A DNA stretch of 63,873 nt, the filler included, from Candidatus Hydrogenedentota bacterium (GTDB lineage Bacteria; JBFMHD01), in the NCBI GenBank assembly GCA_040752395.1. It is 3 parts of 3 records of this genome, joined end to end, with 100 filler letters (N's around TTAATTAATTAA, not from the genome) between each part and the next. Parts side by side here need not be neighbours in the genome. Positions count along the whole stretch, not along the records: positions 32,286 to 63,873 come from JBFMHD010000005.1; 2 more parts are not named here. The stretch is one strand, 5' to 3'. The notes under the pieces are model-generated. The model had not been told where the DNA came from and did no database searches. It worked only from the letters and a program-made list of their open reading frames with translations. The position numbers were made by a program, and so were the translations under genes. Numbering within the stretch: position 1 is the stretch's first letter; every line of letters begins with the position of its first letter. Shown here in pieces: positions 5,774 to 41,345 of the stretch.

Positions 5774-6604
5774 TTAACGCAATAGGTTCAACACGTTCTG
5801 ACTCGAGAGATTAGCCTGTGCTAGAGATGCGACGCCAGTCTGCTGTAAAATCTGGTTCACAGAAAGACCAACTATCTCAGTAGCTATATCAGCATCCTCA
5901 ATTCGAGACAGACCTGCACGCTGGTTTTCATTAGCGATATTCAGGAAATTGAATGCACCTTCAAGTCTGTTCTGAAATGCACCGATATCAGCTCGCTGTG
6001 ATGCTATATCCTCTATAGCGCTATCGAGATCAGCGATTGCATTTTGAGCATTTGCTTGGGTTGTTACATCGAGATCTGCTATACCGAGAATAGTAGCATT
6101 AGTAGTTTCGAGATTGAGTGTTACGGTTTCATTTCGATTTGCACCTGCCTGAATAGTTAGTCCGCCGTTTGCTTGACCAAAGTTGCCAGTTAACAAAGGC
6201 TGACCATTGAACTGAACAGCGCCAGCCTGACGGTCGATCTCATCAATAAGCTGGTCAATCTCGGTCTGGATAAGCTGTCGATCCTGGTCAGTTAAGGTGC
6301 CATTAGCAGCTTGTACAGACAACTCGCGTATTCGCTGTGTATTCTCCTGAATAACCTGTAGACCACCCTCAGCAGTCTGGACGAGTGAAATGCCATCCTG
6401 CACATTCCGGGCAGCTTGAGTAAGCCCATTTGTCTGGGTTCTGATACGTTCTGCGACTGCAAGGTTAGCAGCATCATCTGCAGCTCTGTTAATACGTTTA
6501 GCAGATGCTAATCGTGCTATACGTTCCTGCAGCTCCTGCTGATTAACCTGCATAAAACGACTTGCACTTAATGCTGGAATGTTATTGTTTACTCTGAAGC
6601 CCAC
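5774..6604 (-). CDS. fliC: Flagellin (minimal, D0/D1 only, 276 aa)
   Basis: RLASAKRINRAADDAA, NVQDGISLVQTAEG, RADIGAFQNRL, SRIEDAD, QANLSSQNVLNLLR. GTG start with GGGAGG SD. Confidence 0.95.
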   Translation of the reverse strand: MGFRVNNNIPALSASRFMQVNQQELQERIARLASAKRINRAADDAANLAVAERIRTQTNGLTQAARNVQDGISLVQTAEGGLQVIQENTQRIRELSVQAANGTLTDQDRQLIQTEIDQLIDEIDRQAGAVQFNGQPLLTGNFGQANGGLTIQAGANRNETVTLNLETTNATILGIADLDVTTQANAQNAIADLDSAIEDIASQRADIGAFQNRLEGAFNFLNIANENQRAGLSRIEDADIATEIVGLSVNQILQQTGVASLAQANLSSQNVLNLLR

Positions 6605-6683
6605 GGTAGGTCCCTCCCTTCCTTGGATAGAACACTATCCTTAATAAAGCCCCTGAGCAGAGGCTTTTTATTTATTTATATCT

Positions 6684-6711
6684 ATTATAATCATTTTCTG
6701 ATAAATGTCAA
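6684..6711 (-). promoter_or_regulatory. sigma70-type promoter of flagellin
   Basis: Minus strand TTGACA-N16-TATAAT, perfect hexamers, about 80 nt upstream of the GTG. Confidence 0.7.
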
Positions 6712-31717: not shown

Positions 31718-31987
31718 ATGCAACAAAAAATACAGGATTTGCTTCTTAACGAAGCGAGAAAGAAAAAAATTCCGCTCACCATTTATTTGATGAATGGTGT
31801 CCCTGTAAAAGGTAGAATCATTGCGTTTGATAATTTTACGATTCTTATGAATGTTGAAGGTAAGCAGAGTCTGATATATAAACATGCTGTCTCTACCATT
31901 ATACCTTCTAAAGAGCTGATTGATTATCACGCTATGCTCGAGAGTGAAAAACAAGAAGAAGAAAAAGAAGAAGAGCAGGATGCCTGA
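31718..31987 (+). CDS. hfq: RNA chaperone Hfq (acidic C-terminal tail)
   Basis: [31 protein letters not shown]; precedes hflX. Confidence 0.95.
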
Positions 31988-35747: not shown

Positions 35748-37379
<1,632 letters not shown>

Positions 37380-37476
37380 ATGAAAAGTTAAAAGTTAAAA
37401 CTAAGAATGTAGTTGTAAAGATTATTAATATCTCAAAAGTGGTCAAGAGAAATTATTTGACAGCTGGAACATCTTT

Positions 37477-37514
37477 AAAAAGTAAGTCCCGCTGGTGTTA
37501 ACAGCGGGACTTAC
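37477..37514 (-). terminator. Intrinsic terminator (13-bp perfect stem)
   Basis: GTAAGTCCCGCTG-N7-CAGCGGGACTTAC with a T5 tract on the minus strand. Confidence 0.85.
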
Positions 37515-37603
37515 ACCCACAAAAGTGACTACAAAGGAACTTTTGGGACCTATACACTTAAGCCAAGGGAGGGACGCTTAAATGTTGTTACAGGTTCTGG
37601 TCT
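37477..37603 (-). ncRNA. Candidate sigma28-dependent small RNA (~125 nt)
   Basis: Bounded by a consensus sigma28 promoter and a strong terminator; no SD-ATG ORF; carries an anti-SD stretch GUCCCUCCCUU. Confidence 0.6.
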
Positions 37604-37609
37604 ATTTAC

Positions 37610-37636
37610 TTATCGGCTATTTTTTTAGTAGCTTTA
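37610..37636 (-). promoter_or_regulatory. sigma28 (FliA/SigD) promoter
   Basis: Minus strand TAAA-N15-GCCGATAA, exact consensus. Confidence 0.8.
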
Positions 37637-37877
37637 AATTATTTTTAGTTTTTCACCGAGGCAAAGTCCTGTTTTATCTACAAATCCTGACCTTGTTTCA
37701 AGAGCAGTGTTCTTTCGGTAAGCGTGTGTGGGGCGTAAATACTAAACCATATTTACACCACTATCACTTCAAGCACTATTGCCGAAAGGACACGAATTGC
37801 AGTGAGAGTTTCTGATTCAAAGATACATAAATTTAATACAAGCTGCTCTGTCGCAAAGGAGACTAAGCTGATAAAAA

Positions 37878-40800
37878 TTATTCAAGTGACCAGGCAGGTG
37901 ACCAGTCACTCTGCGGAGGAGCTTCTATTAGTTTTGTTATTTTATCGACATATTTCTTTGTTGGACCATCAGCCGGGTTTTTCTCAAGTATCTTTTTGAA
38001 AAACTCTATTGATTTATCAAACTCTCTCTTTTGATATAAACTACGTGCCTCGTTGAACATAGCTCGTAGAGTTCTGGTTGTATCTTGTATTGTACAATAA
38101 TCCGACACCATTTTATGATATCCATCCGGGTTTGCAACGATATAATCAGTAAGTTTTGCTAACCCGTTTCTTATTTTAACTGAGATTAAGATTATCTGAT
38201 TATTTATTTTATTAGTATCAACAACAGCTGTCTGAATATTTTCTATCAGTTGTTTAAGGTGTTTGCCTATTTCGATTGCTATATTATCTCCAGGTGGCGT
38301 AAACAAACAGCGTTTGTAAAAACACTCAACACGTTTATCAAGTGTATCGAGTGTTTTCAAGAGTTCTTCATATAATTGCGGGTTCTGCGTATTTGTGGAC
38401 TGATAATCCGACTTCAGGATTTCAAGCATATGTTTTATTATATATTTCCATTCAAAGATCTGTTTTTCCCATGTTGTTTTAGCTGTTTCTTTTTTTGTTT
38501 TTAAATTTATAATTTCAGGATTATTTTTAATTTTGTCATCAGAGATATTCTGATAAATTGTATTAAATCTCAAAACAAGTGCTTCTATCTCATTTTTTAC
38601 TTCAATAGTTGCAATTATATCATTATTCTTCATAAATTCTATTACCAGGGGAGACAAATCTGAAAAATACTTTTTTATTTCTTTAACGAACTCTGTTTCT
38701 TCTATTTTTTTAGTAGAATAATAATGGTGGTATCCGAGTATCTTTTCAGGTGGCATATTTTTTAAACCTTCAATTATCAAAGCCGGGATAGGTTTACCAA
38801 CCCAGTATTCGAGAAACTTCTCTTTTTTCCAGCCTATAAGTTCATAAACAGGCAGAGGTGGTTCATCTTCGTGTAATTTCAGGTAATTTAGTAATCTTTC
38901 TTCGATATAATTTTTACTTTTTTCATAGGTAAAAGGGCCGAGAGCGATCCAGGAGTCAAATACTTTGTTAACAGGTTCGAGTTCTTCAGCGAGAGATACA
39001 GCTTCACCCATAACTGAATACTGTCTCTTTTTTTCAGAACCCATATTACCAGCAGAAACGACGCCGGTATTAATGCCCATACGTGCAGAGATTTTAACTC
39101 CGAATTTGAGCTGAATCATACGTTGAATTACTTGTAGTTCTTCCTGTTGTTCAAGCGCGGCATAGCAGCATTTCCATGCATTGTCTTTATCATTCATCGG
39201 CACACCCATCTGTGCCTTAATAGCATCGCCCTCGTATTTATCAATATTCCCACTGTATTTCATAATAATATTACTCATAGGTGTAAGATAAATATTCAAA
39301 ATATTAGCAAGTTCCTGAGCTGTCACACCTTCAGAAATTGTAGTAAAACCTGATACATCCGAAGAGAACATAGTCGCTTCAAGTCTATCCCCGGAGATAT
39401 TGAATTTATCAGGATTATCCTCCATAATTTTTAAAATCTCTGGTGAGACCATAGTAGAGAACATATCACGGACTTTTTTTCGTTCCCGCTGGATTTCAAG
39501 ATATTTATAAGCCAGTGTCAAAACCCATGTTGCGATGGCCGTTGTTTCAATAGAAATAATTGGTAATATAAAACCTTTGCTAAATAGATACCAGGAAATG
39601 ACAGGATAACCTGAGAATACAACAAAAGTTGCAAGTGTCCCTCTCAGAGTCAAGTTCAATGTTGTATAAGTTAATAAAAAAGAGATAAGAATTATTATAA
39701 GATATTCTATATATGGGCTGATATTTTTAAGGAATTGTCGGGTAATTATAGTATTCAAAGCATTTGCTGGATAACCTATCATCATATACCTGTTTTCAAG
39801 TGGTGATGGGTTTTGTGAAGAGAGCCCCGTGGCAGTAAGACCGGTGAATATAATTTTGTTATGTAACTCCATTAGCGAAACAGTAAATTTCTTAAGACCC
39901 ATTCTTACTTCTGATGGTTCTGGAAAAAACAAGGGTTGCACCTTACCAATCATATTTTTCTTAAAGAAAAATTTTGTCTGGTTGTATCCTTCCTTTAATA
40001 AAATCGAGTCCTGCATTTTACATTTTTTTAAAATATCTTCGTATTTGGGGTCTTTATCTCTATTTAATTCAGTTAACAAGGTTTTGTTAAAAACCATTTG
40101 ATGCCAGATATTCGTATCAGCAAGTGTTTGGCCAAGTCCTACACCACAAAGAAAAATATTATAATCAGCATCCATCTCAATAAAATATTCCATTAACCAT
40201 GAAATAAAAAGAGACCATGCAATCTGTTTTGCTTTTTTTTCAGGAACAAGGCCGGAATGAATTAATCCTGTATTTAGATAATCTAATACTGTCATCGGGT
40301 CGCTCGTTCCTATGGGATGATTCTGCAAGATTTTTTTACCAAGTATAAAAGTGTAATAATAAGCGATAAGATTATAAGGCAGATGAGTAAAACTTTCTTT
40401 ATAAGCGCCGGTCCAGTTAATAGTTAAAAAACCTTGTTCATCGATGGGTATTCTGAAAGGAGATTGAGTTTGGAATTGAATATATTTCCCTGGATATACC
40501 AATATTTTATTAAGTGGGGTATTGAAATAATCAGCTGCGATTAAAGTTACAAGTGAAGGATAGACCGCACCTTCATATTTAACAGCCATAGAATAATGTC
40601 TTGCGATACCATCATTATCAAGAAATATTCTATTATAGCCCACGCCTTTAACTATCTCATTTAATTTTTTTATTGGCGGGATGAAATCAACAGCTGTTTT
40701 CAAATCATCAATGTTTTTATAATTTTCTAACGTGAATTTACTCATTGATAAAATATTTTCTTTACGGTCAGGAAGGATCTGGTTCTTTTTTAATTCTGTT

Positions 40801-41345
40801 AATTCCTTGAGTTCTTTTTTTGATATGCTTATTTCAGGTAGATAAAAATTACTGCATAGAAATACATTTTTATAGTTTGTGATAGTTTCTATCATTTCTT
40901 TATTAAAATCCGGAACAGCGCTTAAGATTACCTCAGTATTTGAATTATTATTTATGTGATGATTTAACTGAGTATTAATATTTTTCGCGGTATTTTCCTG
41001 GAAATAAATAGTACTTTCTTTATTAAAAGTAATATCAACAAAACTACAGGATGCAGCAGAATATAAATCACAAACATCAACAATAATTTTCAGTTTATCC
41101 CATGGCCAGGGCCATCTTCCAATACTTTCAATGGCATTATCATCAATATCAATGGTAACGATTTTATCAGAGATGATAGGTTTTTGGAAGTATCTACGCT
41201 TATGTCGGCTATCGATTGTAAAGTTTTCTAATTGGTCAAATGATTTAAATAAATCGAGTAATATTATAATTAAAGCTATTACTGAGCTAATGATTAAAGT
41301 CCTTAATAAGAGATTTTTTAGTTCAATCTGTTTTTTAGTTCCCAT
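37878..41345 (-). CDS. CHASE2-domain class III adenylate cyclase, C1-like half (metal-binding Asps kept, Asn/Arg lost)
   Basis: CHASE2 (IDIDD..IGRWPWP, DNDGIAR), TMs, cyclase SSDVSGFT / IDKYEGDA / RMGINTG / GEAVSLAEELE, TPR-like tail. Confidence 0.9.
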   Translation of the reverse strand: MGTKKQIELKNLLLRTLIISSVIALIIILLDLFKSFDQLENFTIDSRHKRRYFQKPIISDKIVTIDIDDNAIESIGRWPWPWDKLKIIVDVCDLYSAASCSFVDITFNKESTIYFQENTAKNINTQLNHHINNNSNTEVILSAVPDFNKEMIETITNYKNVFLCSNFYLPEISISKKELKELTELKKNQILPDRKENILSMSKFTLENYKNIDDLKTAVDFIPPIKKLNEIVKGVGYNRIFLDNDGIARHYSMAVKYEGAVYPSLVTLIAADYFNTPLNKILVYPGKYIQFQTQSPFRIPIDEQGFLTINWTGAYKESFTHLPYNLIAYYYTFILGKKILQNHPIGTSDPMTVLDYLNTGLIHSGLVPEKKAKQIAWSLFISWLMEYFIEMDADYNIFLCGVGLGQTLADTNIWHQMVFNKTLLTELNRDKDPKYEDILKKCKMQDSILLKEGYNQTKFFFKKNMIGKVQPLFFPEPSEVRMGLKKFTVSLMELHNKIIFTGLTATGLSSQNPSPLENRYMMIGYPANALNTIITRQFLKNISPYIEYLIIILISFLLTYTTLNLTLRGTLATFVVFSGYPVISWYLFSKGFILPIISIETTAIATWVLTLAYKYLEIQRERKKVRDMFSTMVSPEILKIMEDNPDKFNISGDRLEATMFSSDVSGFTTISEGVTAQELANILNIYLTPMSNIIMKYSGNIDKYEGDAIKAQMGVPMNDKDNAWKCCYAALEQQEELQVIQRMIQLKFGVKISARMGINTGVVSAGNMGSEKKRQYSVMGEAVSLAEELEPVNKVFDSWIALGPFTYEKSKNYIEERLLNYLKLHEDEPPLPVYELIGWKKEKFLEYWVGKPIPALIIEGLKNMPPEKILGYHHYYSTKKIEETEFVKEIKKYFSDLSPLVIEFMKNNDIIATIEVKNEIEALVLRFNTIYQNISDDKIKNNPEIINLKTKKETAKTTWEKQIFEWKYIIKHMLEILKSDYQSTNTQNPQLYEELLKTLDTLDKRVECFYKRCLFTPPGDNIAIEIGKHLKQLIENIQTAVVDTNKINNQIILISVKIRNGLAKLTDYIVANPDGYHKMVSDYCTIQDTTRTLRAMFNEARSLYQKREFDKSIEFFKKILEKNPADGPTKKYVDKITKLIEAPPQSDWSPAWSLE

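Follow-up and report, generated by a model that had tools for sequence, protein, structure and literature searches.

Positions 37477-37636 of the DNA analysed here raise the question whether a short intergenic stretch, read on the minus strand, is a small RNA (sRNA) gene belonging to the flagellar programme of its host, and which mRNAs such an RNA would address. Three contigs from the Candidatus Hydrogenedentota bacterium assembly, joined by runs of N, make up the 63.9 kb that we call the window; the whole genome assembly amounts to 2.84 Mb in 349 contigs, at 34.8% G+C. A sequence-only reading of the window had proposed a late-class flagellar sRNA that represses translation of one flagellin. 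Our preferred answer, to which we give a probability of about 0.55, is that the locus is a stand-alone gene for a trans-acting sRNA of ~125 nucleotides (nt), which would depend on sigma28 (FliA) for its transcription and would use one of its loops to occlude the ribosome-binding site (RBS) of a sigma70-driven flagellin mRNA, repressing its translation. The sequence elements of the locus, its fold, the accessibility of the loop, the ranking of targets and the flagellar enrichment among them were computed here.

As the sequence-only reading had cautioned, the sRNA locus and the flagellin gene lie on separate contigs (termed C295 and C293, respectively). We assign both to one organism because both carry a Shine-Dalgarno (SD) repeat module, GTTTTTCRRRGGAG, treated below, and because their tetranucleotide use matches that of the rest of the genome (r 0.992 for C293 and 0.996 for C295).

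The sigma28-type promoter was found by a motif scan as TAAAGCTACTAAAAAAATAGCCGATAA, at 37610-37636 on the minus strand. It matches TAAA-N15-GCCGATAA exactly, as had been claimed, and is the single such match in the window, against 0.04 expected; one or more matches appeared in 4 of 100 shuffled sequences. No sigma70-like site was reported at the same minus-strand positions in the promoter scan. Genome-wide there are five exact matches, three of them outside predicted genes: one lies 91 nt before the start that the gene caller chose for fliS (the fliS frame opens further upstream), one lies 50 nt ahead of a DUF5610 gene, and the third is the sRNA promoter on C295, with no gene behind it. Motifs with one mismatch precede fliD, motA, flgN and one flagellin gene. 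The presence of fliA/sigD had been left to be established; fliA is present, scoring 290 bits against a curated cut-off of 189.6. With the exact motif, fliA in the host and the same motif before late flagellar genes, the sRNA promoter has the sequence hallmarks of a sigma28 (FliA)-dependent promoter. Weaker matches of the form TTTACATAAT..CGATAA were not counted as sigma28 promoters, belonging as they do to an intergenic repeat and looking more sigma70-like.

The motif search also touched two other loci. The DUF5610 gene (G000:C291:5632-6410, plus strand, promoter included), which encodes a 233-aa protein and has the SD sequence AAGGAGGGAC, may be an unrecognized late flagellar gene. At G000:C113:10058-10190 (plus strand) a promoter with one mismatch, TAAAGTTTTTTACTAAAGGGTCGATAA, is followed by ~60 nt and then by a strong G-C hairpin with a U-tract, with no gene behind; this unit, which contains a 16-codon ATG frame lacking an SD, is a second candidate for a sigma28-dependent small transcript.

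Initiation 7-9 nt past the -10 element at 37610-37636 would yield an RNA of about 122-127 nt (37477-37603, minus strand), its 3' end being placed at a U-tract. The predicted intrinsic terminator occupies 37477-37514 (minus strand): its hairpin (37514-37482) has 13 base pairs, 8 of them G-C, and a 7-nt loop, and runs into UUUUU (-23.9 kcal/mol, z -7.8), which bears out the hairpin and U-tract described beforehand. Folded as a whole, the 127-nt RNA reaches a minimum free energy of -49 kcal/mol against a shuffle mean of -26.6 (z = -7.29), and not one of 200 shuffles folds as well. The predicted structure consists of three hairpins, each of which beats its own shuffles. Stem-loop 1 (37548-37595, minus strand; -15.5 kcal/mol, z -4.43) has a stem of 6 + 10 bp that presents a 12-nt C/U-rich apical loop, GUCCCUCCCUUG (37564-37575, minus strand; RNA nt 29-40). 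This loop, whose opening cost is 0.03 kcal/mol, is the proposed seed. Stem-loop 2 (37517-37547, minus strand; -7.4 kcal/mol, z -3.0) contains UCCUUUG in its loop, and the terminator is the third hairpin. The Rfam comparison that the sequence-only reading had envisaged returned no sRNA family: at the gathering cut-off tRNA alone passes in the window, and at E up to 10 no family lies over the seed hairpin, the best local matches scoring 13-20 bits against cut-offs of 42-113. The weak rows that do overlap the RNA (rteR, rli22 and mir-1305) are all far under their gathering cut-offs.

On the minus strand between promoter and terminator there is no open reading frame (ORF) of at least 30 aa; at 20 aa or more there is a single 25-aa GTG frame (37443-37520), which crosses the terminator. 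The earlier description of ~125 nt with no credible ORF agrees with this. Very improbable, in our estimate, is a protein-coding explanation of the locus, by which AAGGGAGGGAC, the 11-mer complementary to the seed loop, would be the plus-strand RBS of a 77-aa ORF at 37582-37815 (plus strand), or by which the RNA itself would encode a tiny peptide. The plus-strand AAGGGAGGGAC does sit 6 nt ahead of the ATG that opens the 77-aa frame, and by our own reading there is a 19-codon Cys-rich GTG frame inside the RNA; however, the 77-aa ORF matches no Pfam family at E up to 1, its best protein-atlas score (0.78) is within the range of shuffled sequences, and no plus-strand promoter-like site lies near it. 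It moreover runs antisense through the promoter and a remnant of a DUF192 gene, and its start is missing in a second copy of this DNA (see below); the 19-codon frame lacks an SD. With a predicted promoter of its own, an intrinsic terminator, a short length and no evident coding content, the locus has the features of a gene for a trans-encoded sRNA.

The flagellin gene proposed as its target is at 5774-6604 (minus strand), recognized by a Flagellin_N match, and has a GTG start. Its sigma70-type promoter, TTGACA-N16-TATAAT at 6684-6711 (minus strand), matches at 12 of 12 positions, and the leader of ~73 nt contains a 5' hairpin and two AAGGA motifs. The first seed named by the sequence-only reading, GUCCCUCCCUU at 37575-37565 (minus strand), falls within the fully unpaired 12-nt loop, and its complementarity to flagellin positions -16 to -6 is exact: the predicted target site, AAGGGAGGGAC at 6610-6620 (minus strand), counted from the GTG at 6604, is the reverse complement of loop nt 29-39 and covers the flagellin SD. 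On both strands of the 2.84 Mb this 11-mer occurs twice, once at the flagellin RBS and once opposite the RNA itself, so that the flagellin RBS is the only one to carry it. A second seed, UAGGUCCC, had also been named. It is indeed present at 37552-37545, where its bases are shared between the lower stem of stem-loop 1 and the foot of stem-loop 2, and it was set aside as a seed: it is buried in a stem, opening it costs 8.8 kcal/mol against a duplex energy of -14.0, and its target 8-mer, GGGACCTA, has 19 occurrences in the genome. It would also compete with the loop for identical target bases.

Two scans placed the same mRNA at the head of the predicted targets. With the loop alone, the C293 flagellin ranks first of 2401 start regions at -22.7 kcal/mol, in a population with a mean of -7.5 and a standard deviation of 3.5. 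In an accessibility-aware scan, opening energies were calculated for every interval of the RNA, all 29 accessible intervals were allowed to pair with no preselection of the loop, and target opening was charged; the same flagellin is again first of 2401, at -16.8 kcal/mol, and for 49 of the top 50 predicted targets the interacting region is the loop. By these models the RNA has what would be expected of a trans-encoded sRNA, an accessible seed and a significantly complementary start-region target.

Flagellar genes are also enriched behind the first rank. Pfam annotation, applied to the top 20 targets and to the 147 proteins predicted from 13 flagellar contigs, defined a set of 36 flagellar genes, the added C293 flagellin included; DUF5610, SLT and MgtE_N-like genes were excluded. 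Seven of the 36 are in the loop-only top 25: the C293 flagellin (rank 1), fliG (6), flgB (10), fliP (15), the flagellin at C301:10658 (18), flgM (20) and the C26 flagellin (24); the sigma28-driven DUF5610 gene, at rank 16, is not counted among the seven. The flgM site, GGAGGGAC at -15 to -8, scores -13.1 kcal/mol in the accessibility-aware scan, and with target opening charged the top 25 keeps five flagellar genes. Among 150 composition-preserving shuffles of the loop, the mean number of flagellar genes in the top 25 is 1.25 and the maximum 5, none reaching seven. A generic anti-SD 12-mer brings one flagellar gene into the top 25; the 16S rRNA gene is absent from the assembly, and for that reason this control was a consensus 12-mer and not the genome's own sequence.

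The origin of the locus offers a different explanation. A 128-nt block at 37580-37707 (minus strand), which takes in the final codons of a DUF192 gene, the promoter and ~24 nt from the 5' end of the RNA, is duplicated at G000:C150:2530-2649 (locus L125:1446-1565). The two copies differ at five positions, and on C150 three of these are in or beside the promoter. The DUF192 gene there is intact and lies within a tad-type locus, and the promoter copy on C150 is degenerate, with a 14-nt spacer and GCCAATAA; the sequence after it is unstructured (z -0.8). On these grounds, the degenerate promoter and the lack of structure behind it, the C150 copy was rejected as a sibling sRNA. It is conceivable, though we hold it doubtful and somewhat less probable than general anti-SD regulation (below), that the locus arose as a by-product and regulates nothing: a DUF192 end with a sigma28-like promoter, duplicated into the 3' untranslated region (UTR) of an upstream gene at 37878-41345 (minus strand; 1155 aa), taken by eye as a CHASE2-type adenylate/guanylate cyclase, with the terminator hairpin serving that gene and the SD complementarity due to chance. 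At the stop of the cyclase-like gene (37878) there is only a weak hairpin with 4 G-C pairs and a poor U-tract, so that transcription of this gene may continue into the sRNA region; the block, with its five differences, stands behind an intact DUF192 gene on C150 but behind the last codons only on C295. C/U-rich 12-mers, furthermore, often find good partners in start regions: the best energy of the 150 shuffled loops averages -19.9 kcal/mol.

Against such an accident speak the perfect promoter of the C295 copy, as set against the degenerate and unstructured C150 copy, and the flagellar enrichment, which lies above all 150 shuffles. The seed hairpin itself spans the duplication junction: for each of the two stems of stem-loop 1 the 5' arm comes from the duplicated block and the exact 3' partner from unique sequence beyond it, giving a nested hairpin of 16 bp (z -4.4) that exposes exactly the seed, which would be unexpected of a random junction. 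The comparison suggests that C295 holds the maintained and C150 the decaying copy, which mildly favours function.

A number of results weigh against a flagellin-repressing sRNA or narrow its scope. The lead of the flagellin in the accessibility-aware scan is just 0.3 kcal/mol over the runner-up (-16.5 kcal/mol), a cNMP-binding protein gene whose site falls within the start of the coding sequence, so that the flagellin does outrank random SD-bearing mRNAs, as the sequence-only reading would have it, by a narrow margin. Unrestricted full-length pairing with duplexfold gave unrealistic duplexes of 50-100 nt and left the flagellin outside the top 40, and scoring by 24-nt sliding windows put it 21st of 2284 and then 152nd of 400 re-scored with target opening, a poor rank that we attribute to duplexes being forced into the stem. 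Six of the 150 shuffled loops reach some start region at -22.7 kcal/mol or lower, and in eight a flagellar gene takes rank 1. When the loop is reversed with its CCCUCCC core kept, five flagellar genes are still found in the top 25; much of the enrichment therefore reflects a shared G-rich type of SD and not the full 11-mer. The target ranking rests on gene calls from our own crude ORF caller (2449 genes, 83% coding), and the flagellar set is limited to the 13 contigs and C293, with hook, distal-rod and chemotaxis genes missing. The second-seed match is probably coincidental. The promoter and the 5' end of the RNA belong to a recent segmental duplication, and the unit could be an evolutionary accident. 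Finally, this genome stands alone for its phylum in a collection of 199,900 species, which offers no relative in which to compare the RNA or seed/SD co-variation.

In searches further afield, the sRNA locus gave short chance matches only (E >0.006) against 60 other genomes, and enolase-anchored synteny over 80 loci found no close relative, the top identity being 74%. A pattern scan of metagenomes for the sigma28 promoter together with the loop returned a single match, L147:3001-3100, where a sigma28-type promoter and the same GGTCCCTCCCTTG occur within the leader of a CheY-like response-regulator gene; on a visibly G+C-rich, unrelated contig, it was judged a chance match and not a relative of the sRNA.

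The models, taken with the reversed-loop result, so indicate a loop tuned to the G-rich SD type of a subset of flagellar genes, with the full 11-bp match singling out one flagellin. What had been inferred beforehand, a late-class flagellar sRNA repressing this flagellin, keeps its promoter class, its accessible seed and its first-ranked target; the target set, though, is likely broader than this one flagellin and takes in flgM, fliG, flgB, fliP and two more flagellins.

Breadth of this kind could go further still. The RNA might be a real sigma28-dependent sRNA and yet a general anti-SD regulator of mRNAs with a G-rich SD (GGGAGGG or GGAGGGAC), the flagellin match being incidental; we consider this unlikely, albeit the least unlikely of the alternatives. 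Non-flagellar top targets at -13 to -16.5 kcal/mol fit it, those with annotation including the cNMP-binding protein, a hybrid histidine kinase, an alanyl-tRNA synthetase and an AIR-synthase-like protein, as do the small flagellin margin, the behaviour of the reversed loop and the five SD-module genes in the top 25. It accords less well with the restriction of the 11-mer to the flagellin RBS, with the flagellar enrichment that no shuffle equalled and with the sigma28 promoter, which links the RNA to the flagellar programme. Nor does the dominant SD type of the genome suit the loop. The module GTTTTTCRRRGGAG is present in 340 copies on 191 of the 349 contigs, and in 222 of the 2401 predicted start regions but in only 1 of the 36 flagellar genes; its dominant forms are weak partners for the loop (mean -9.5 kcal/mol), the five top-25 genes notwithstanding, and because of this weak pairing the sRNA was rejected as a regulator of the genome-wide module.

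Repeats are found beside the sRNA as well: the spacer that separates the sRNA terminator from enolase, at 37029-37420 of the window, is one of the copies of a mosaic intergenic repeat of this genome. Short tandem arrays occur in it, with a period of 8 at 37277-37345 and of 7 at 37185-37216 and elsewhere, and it has a sigma70-like promoter of its own.

The genome encodes six flagellins plus flgL. The flagellin paralogues (window 5774-6711; G000:C301:7443-11572; C26; C84) have at least three promoter types: the perfect sigma70 promoter, a sigma28-like promoter 360 nt upstream of one flagellin and a sigma54-like GG/GC element before another. These differing promoters suggest staged filament composition. 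The presence of hfq in the window had been pointed out, and the gene was found at about 31730-31915 (plus strand; C294:15446-15631), scoring 98.8 bits against a cut-off of 27.

The genes csrA and fliW are located in the main flagellin cluster. In the FliW-CsrA partner switch, as described in PMC4894983, a protein repressor controls flagellin translation at the SD. The present case is alike in that control would be post-transcriptional and at the SD, with csrA, fliW and the AAGGA motifs of the leader all present; it differs in that the RNA lacks CsrA-type motifs and would act alongside the protein repressor. Conceivably the RNA could instead titrate a protein of this switch, as a sponge for CsrA or FliW that does not act by base pairing, a reading to which the location of csrA and fliW and the two AAGGA motifs lend some colour. 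We regard it as the least probable of all those considered here: the only GGA in the RNA, at nt 115, is hidden within the stem of the terminator, the C/U-rich loops are the reverse of what a CsrA site looks like, and no Rfam match of CsrB/Rsm type was found. Sequestration of CsrA in the manner of CsrB or RsmZ requires multiple exposed GGA motifs, and the RNA was rejected as an sRNA of that type.

Among known RNAs, RsaE/RoxS and RepG, from Firmicutes and Epsilonproteobacteria, are anti-SD sRNAs whose unpaired C- or C/U-rich loops pair with G-rich RBSs. The RNA described here is unlike them in its promoter class and regulon, and no Rfam family lies over its seed hairpin at E up to 10.

The closest system is that of Campylobacter jejuni CJnc170 (FlmR) and its paralogue CJnc10 (CjNC4 and CjNC1), described in PMC4626219 as free-standing, non-coding, sigma28-dependent sRNAs with predicted pairing sites that overlap the RBSs of sigma54-class flagellar mRNAs, flaB and flgE among them; according to PMC11187230, overexpression of the Campylobacter sRNA shortens flagella. 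Like CJnc170, the RNA proposed here would be stand-alone, non-coding and sigma28 (FliA)-dependent, with its own terminator, and it has a paralogous copy in the genome. In both cases the predicted pairing overlaps RBSs in 5' UTRs, and the flagellar genes concerned depend on a different sigma factor, those of Campylobacter including, in the account cited, the alternative flagellin FlaB. The two differ in architecture, the Campylobacter RNA being 47 nt long, whereas the present one would be ~125 nt, with three hairpins and a 12-nt hairpin-loop seed; in target class, sigma54-driven there and sigma70-driven here; and in that the Campylobacter effect is described as Hfq-independent in an E. coli reporter, whereas the present host has hfq. 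The likeness to CJnc170/FlmR is one of functional logic as set out in those papers, the RNA here being a prediction from sequence.

The sigma28-dependent sRNAs of Escherichia coli are reported in PMC10578931 to be UTR-derived and to pair inside coding sequences; MotR and FliX do so, and the sites in fliC lie within the coding sequence. They share with the present RNA the sigma28 timing and a host with Hfq, and they are described as modulating the flagellin level and flagellar number. Unlike them, the locus here is an intergenic free-standing unit and its predicted site is the SD. Repression of flgM, a predicted target here, has precedents: C. jejuni CJnc230/FlmE represses flgM and is, as described in PMC11187230, sigma54-dependent and processed from flgE, and E. 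coli OmrA/B (PMC7549644) repress flgM too. OmrA/B are not known to depend on a flagellar sigma factor. As with these, repression would raise sigma28 activity, but in contrast to them the regulator here would itself be sigma28-dependent, giving positive feedback.

The mechanism we favour, that of a sigma28-dependent sRNA occluding the flagellin RBS, would run as follows. FliA polymerase would initiate at ~37603 and stop at the intrinsic terminator ending at 37477. In the sigma28/FlgM circuit, sigma28 activity comes late in assembly, after FlgM export, so an RNA driven by FliA would be made late in flagellar assembly. The first of its three hairpins would display the 12-nt C/U-rich loop, which resembles the 16S anti-Shine-Dalgarno sequence and would pair with 11 consecutive bases (-16 to -6) of the mRNA of the sigma70-transcribed flagellin paralogue, covering the RBS, blocking 30S binding and lowering translation. 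The shorter G-rich SD variants (GGAGGGAC, GGGAGGG) of flgM, fliG, flgB, fliP and two flagellins would make these genes probable secondary targets. The outcome would be a late-stage switch that lowers the output of the sigma70-driven flagellin and of early components, with positive feedback on sigma28 through the repression of flgM. That the locus is transcribed, that the RNA pairs with its target in vivo and that the outcome is repression we infer from these computed features, as we do any part played by Hfq.

A more speculative extension, which we would call unlikely but worth stating, is that in this phylum a subset of flagellar mRNAs (those of three flagellins, flgM, fliG, flgB and fliP) shares an extended G-rich SD 'address', GGGAGGG(AC), that is read by a sigma28-timed mimic of the 16S anti-SD; its one loop would gate a whole stage of assembly together with FliW-CsrA, shutting off the sigma70-driven flagellin and early parts, the regulator having been born by duplication of a promoter plus 5' arm onto a new 3' arm. 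The address would then be separate from the SD module, copies of which stand ahead of hundreds of housekeeping genes, and, just as tentatively, the RNA might remove FlgM and lock sigma28 on.

Such an RNA would not be surprising in kind: the logic is known, and the RNA, which matches no Rfam family, appears to be new. If the proposal is right, sigma28-dependent sRNA feedback would extend beyond E. coli and Campylobacter to a deeply branching uncultured phylum, which would suggest that late-sigma RNAs shutting off earlier-class flagellar mRNAs at the RBS have originated repeatedly. It would also provide a concrete seed-target pair, an 11-bp match between a loop and an SD, and would show how segmental duplication can put an sRNA together.

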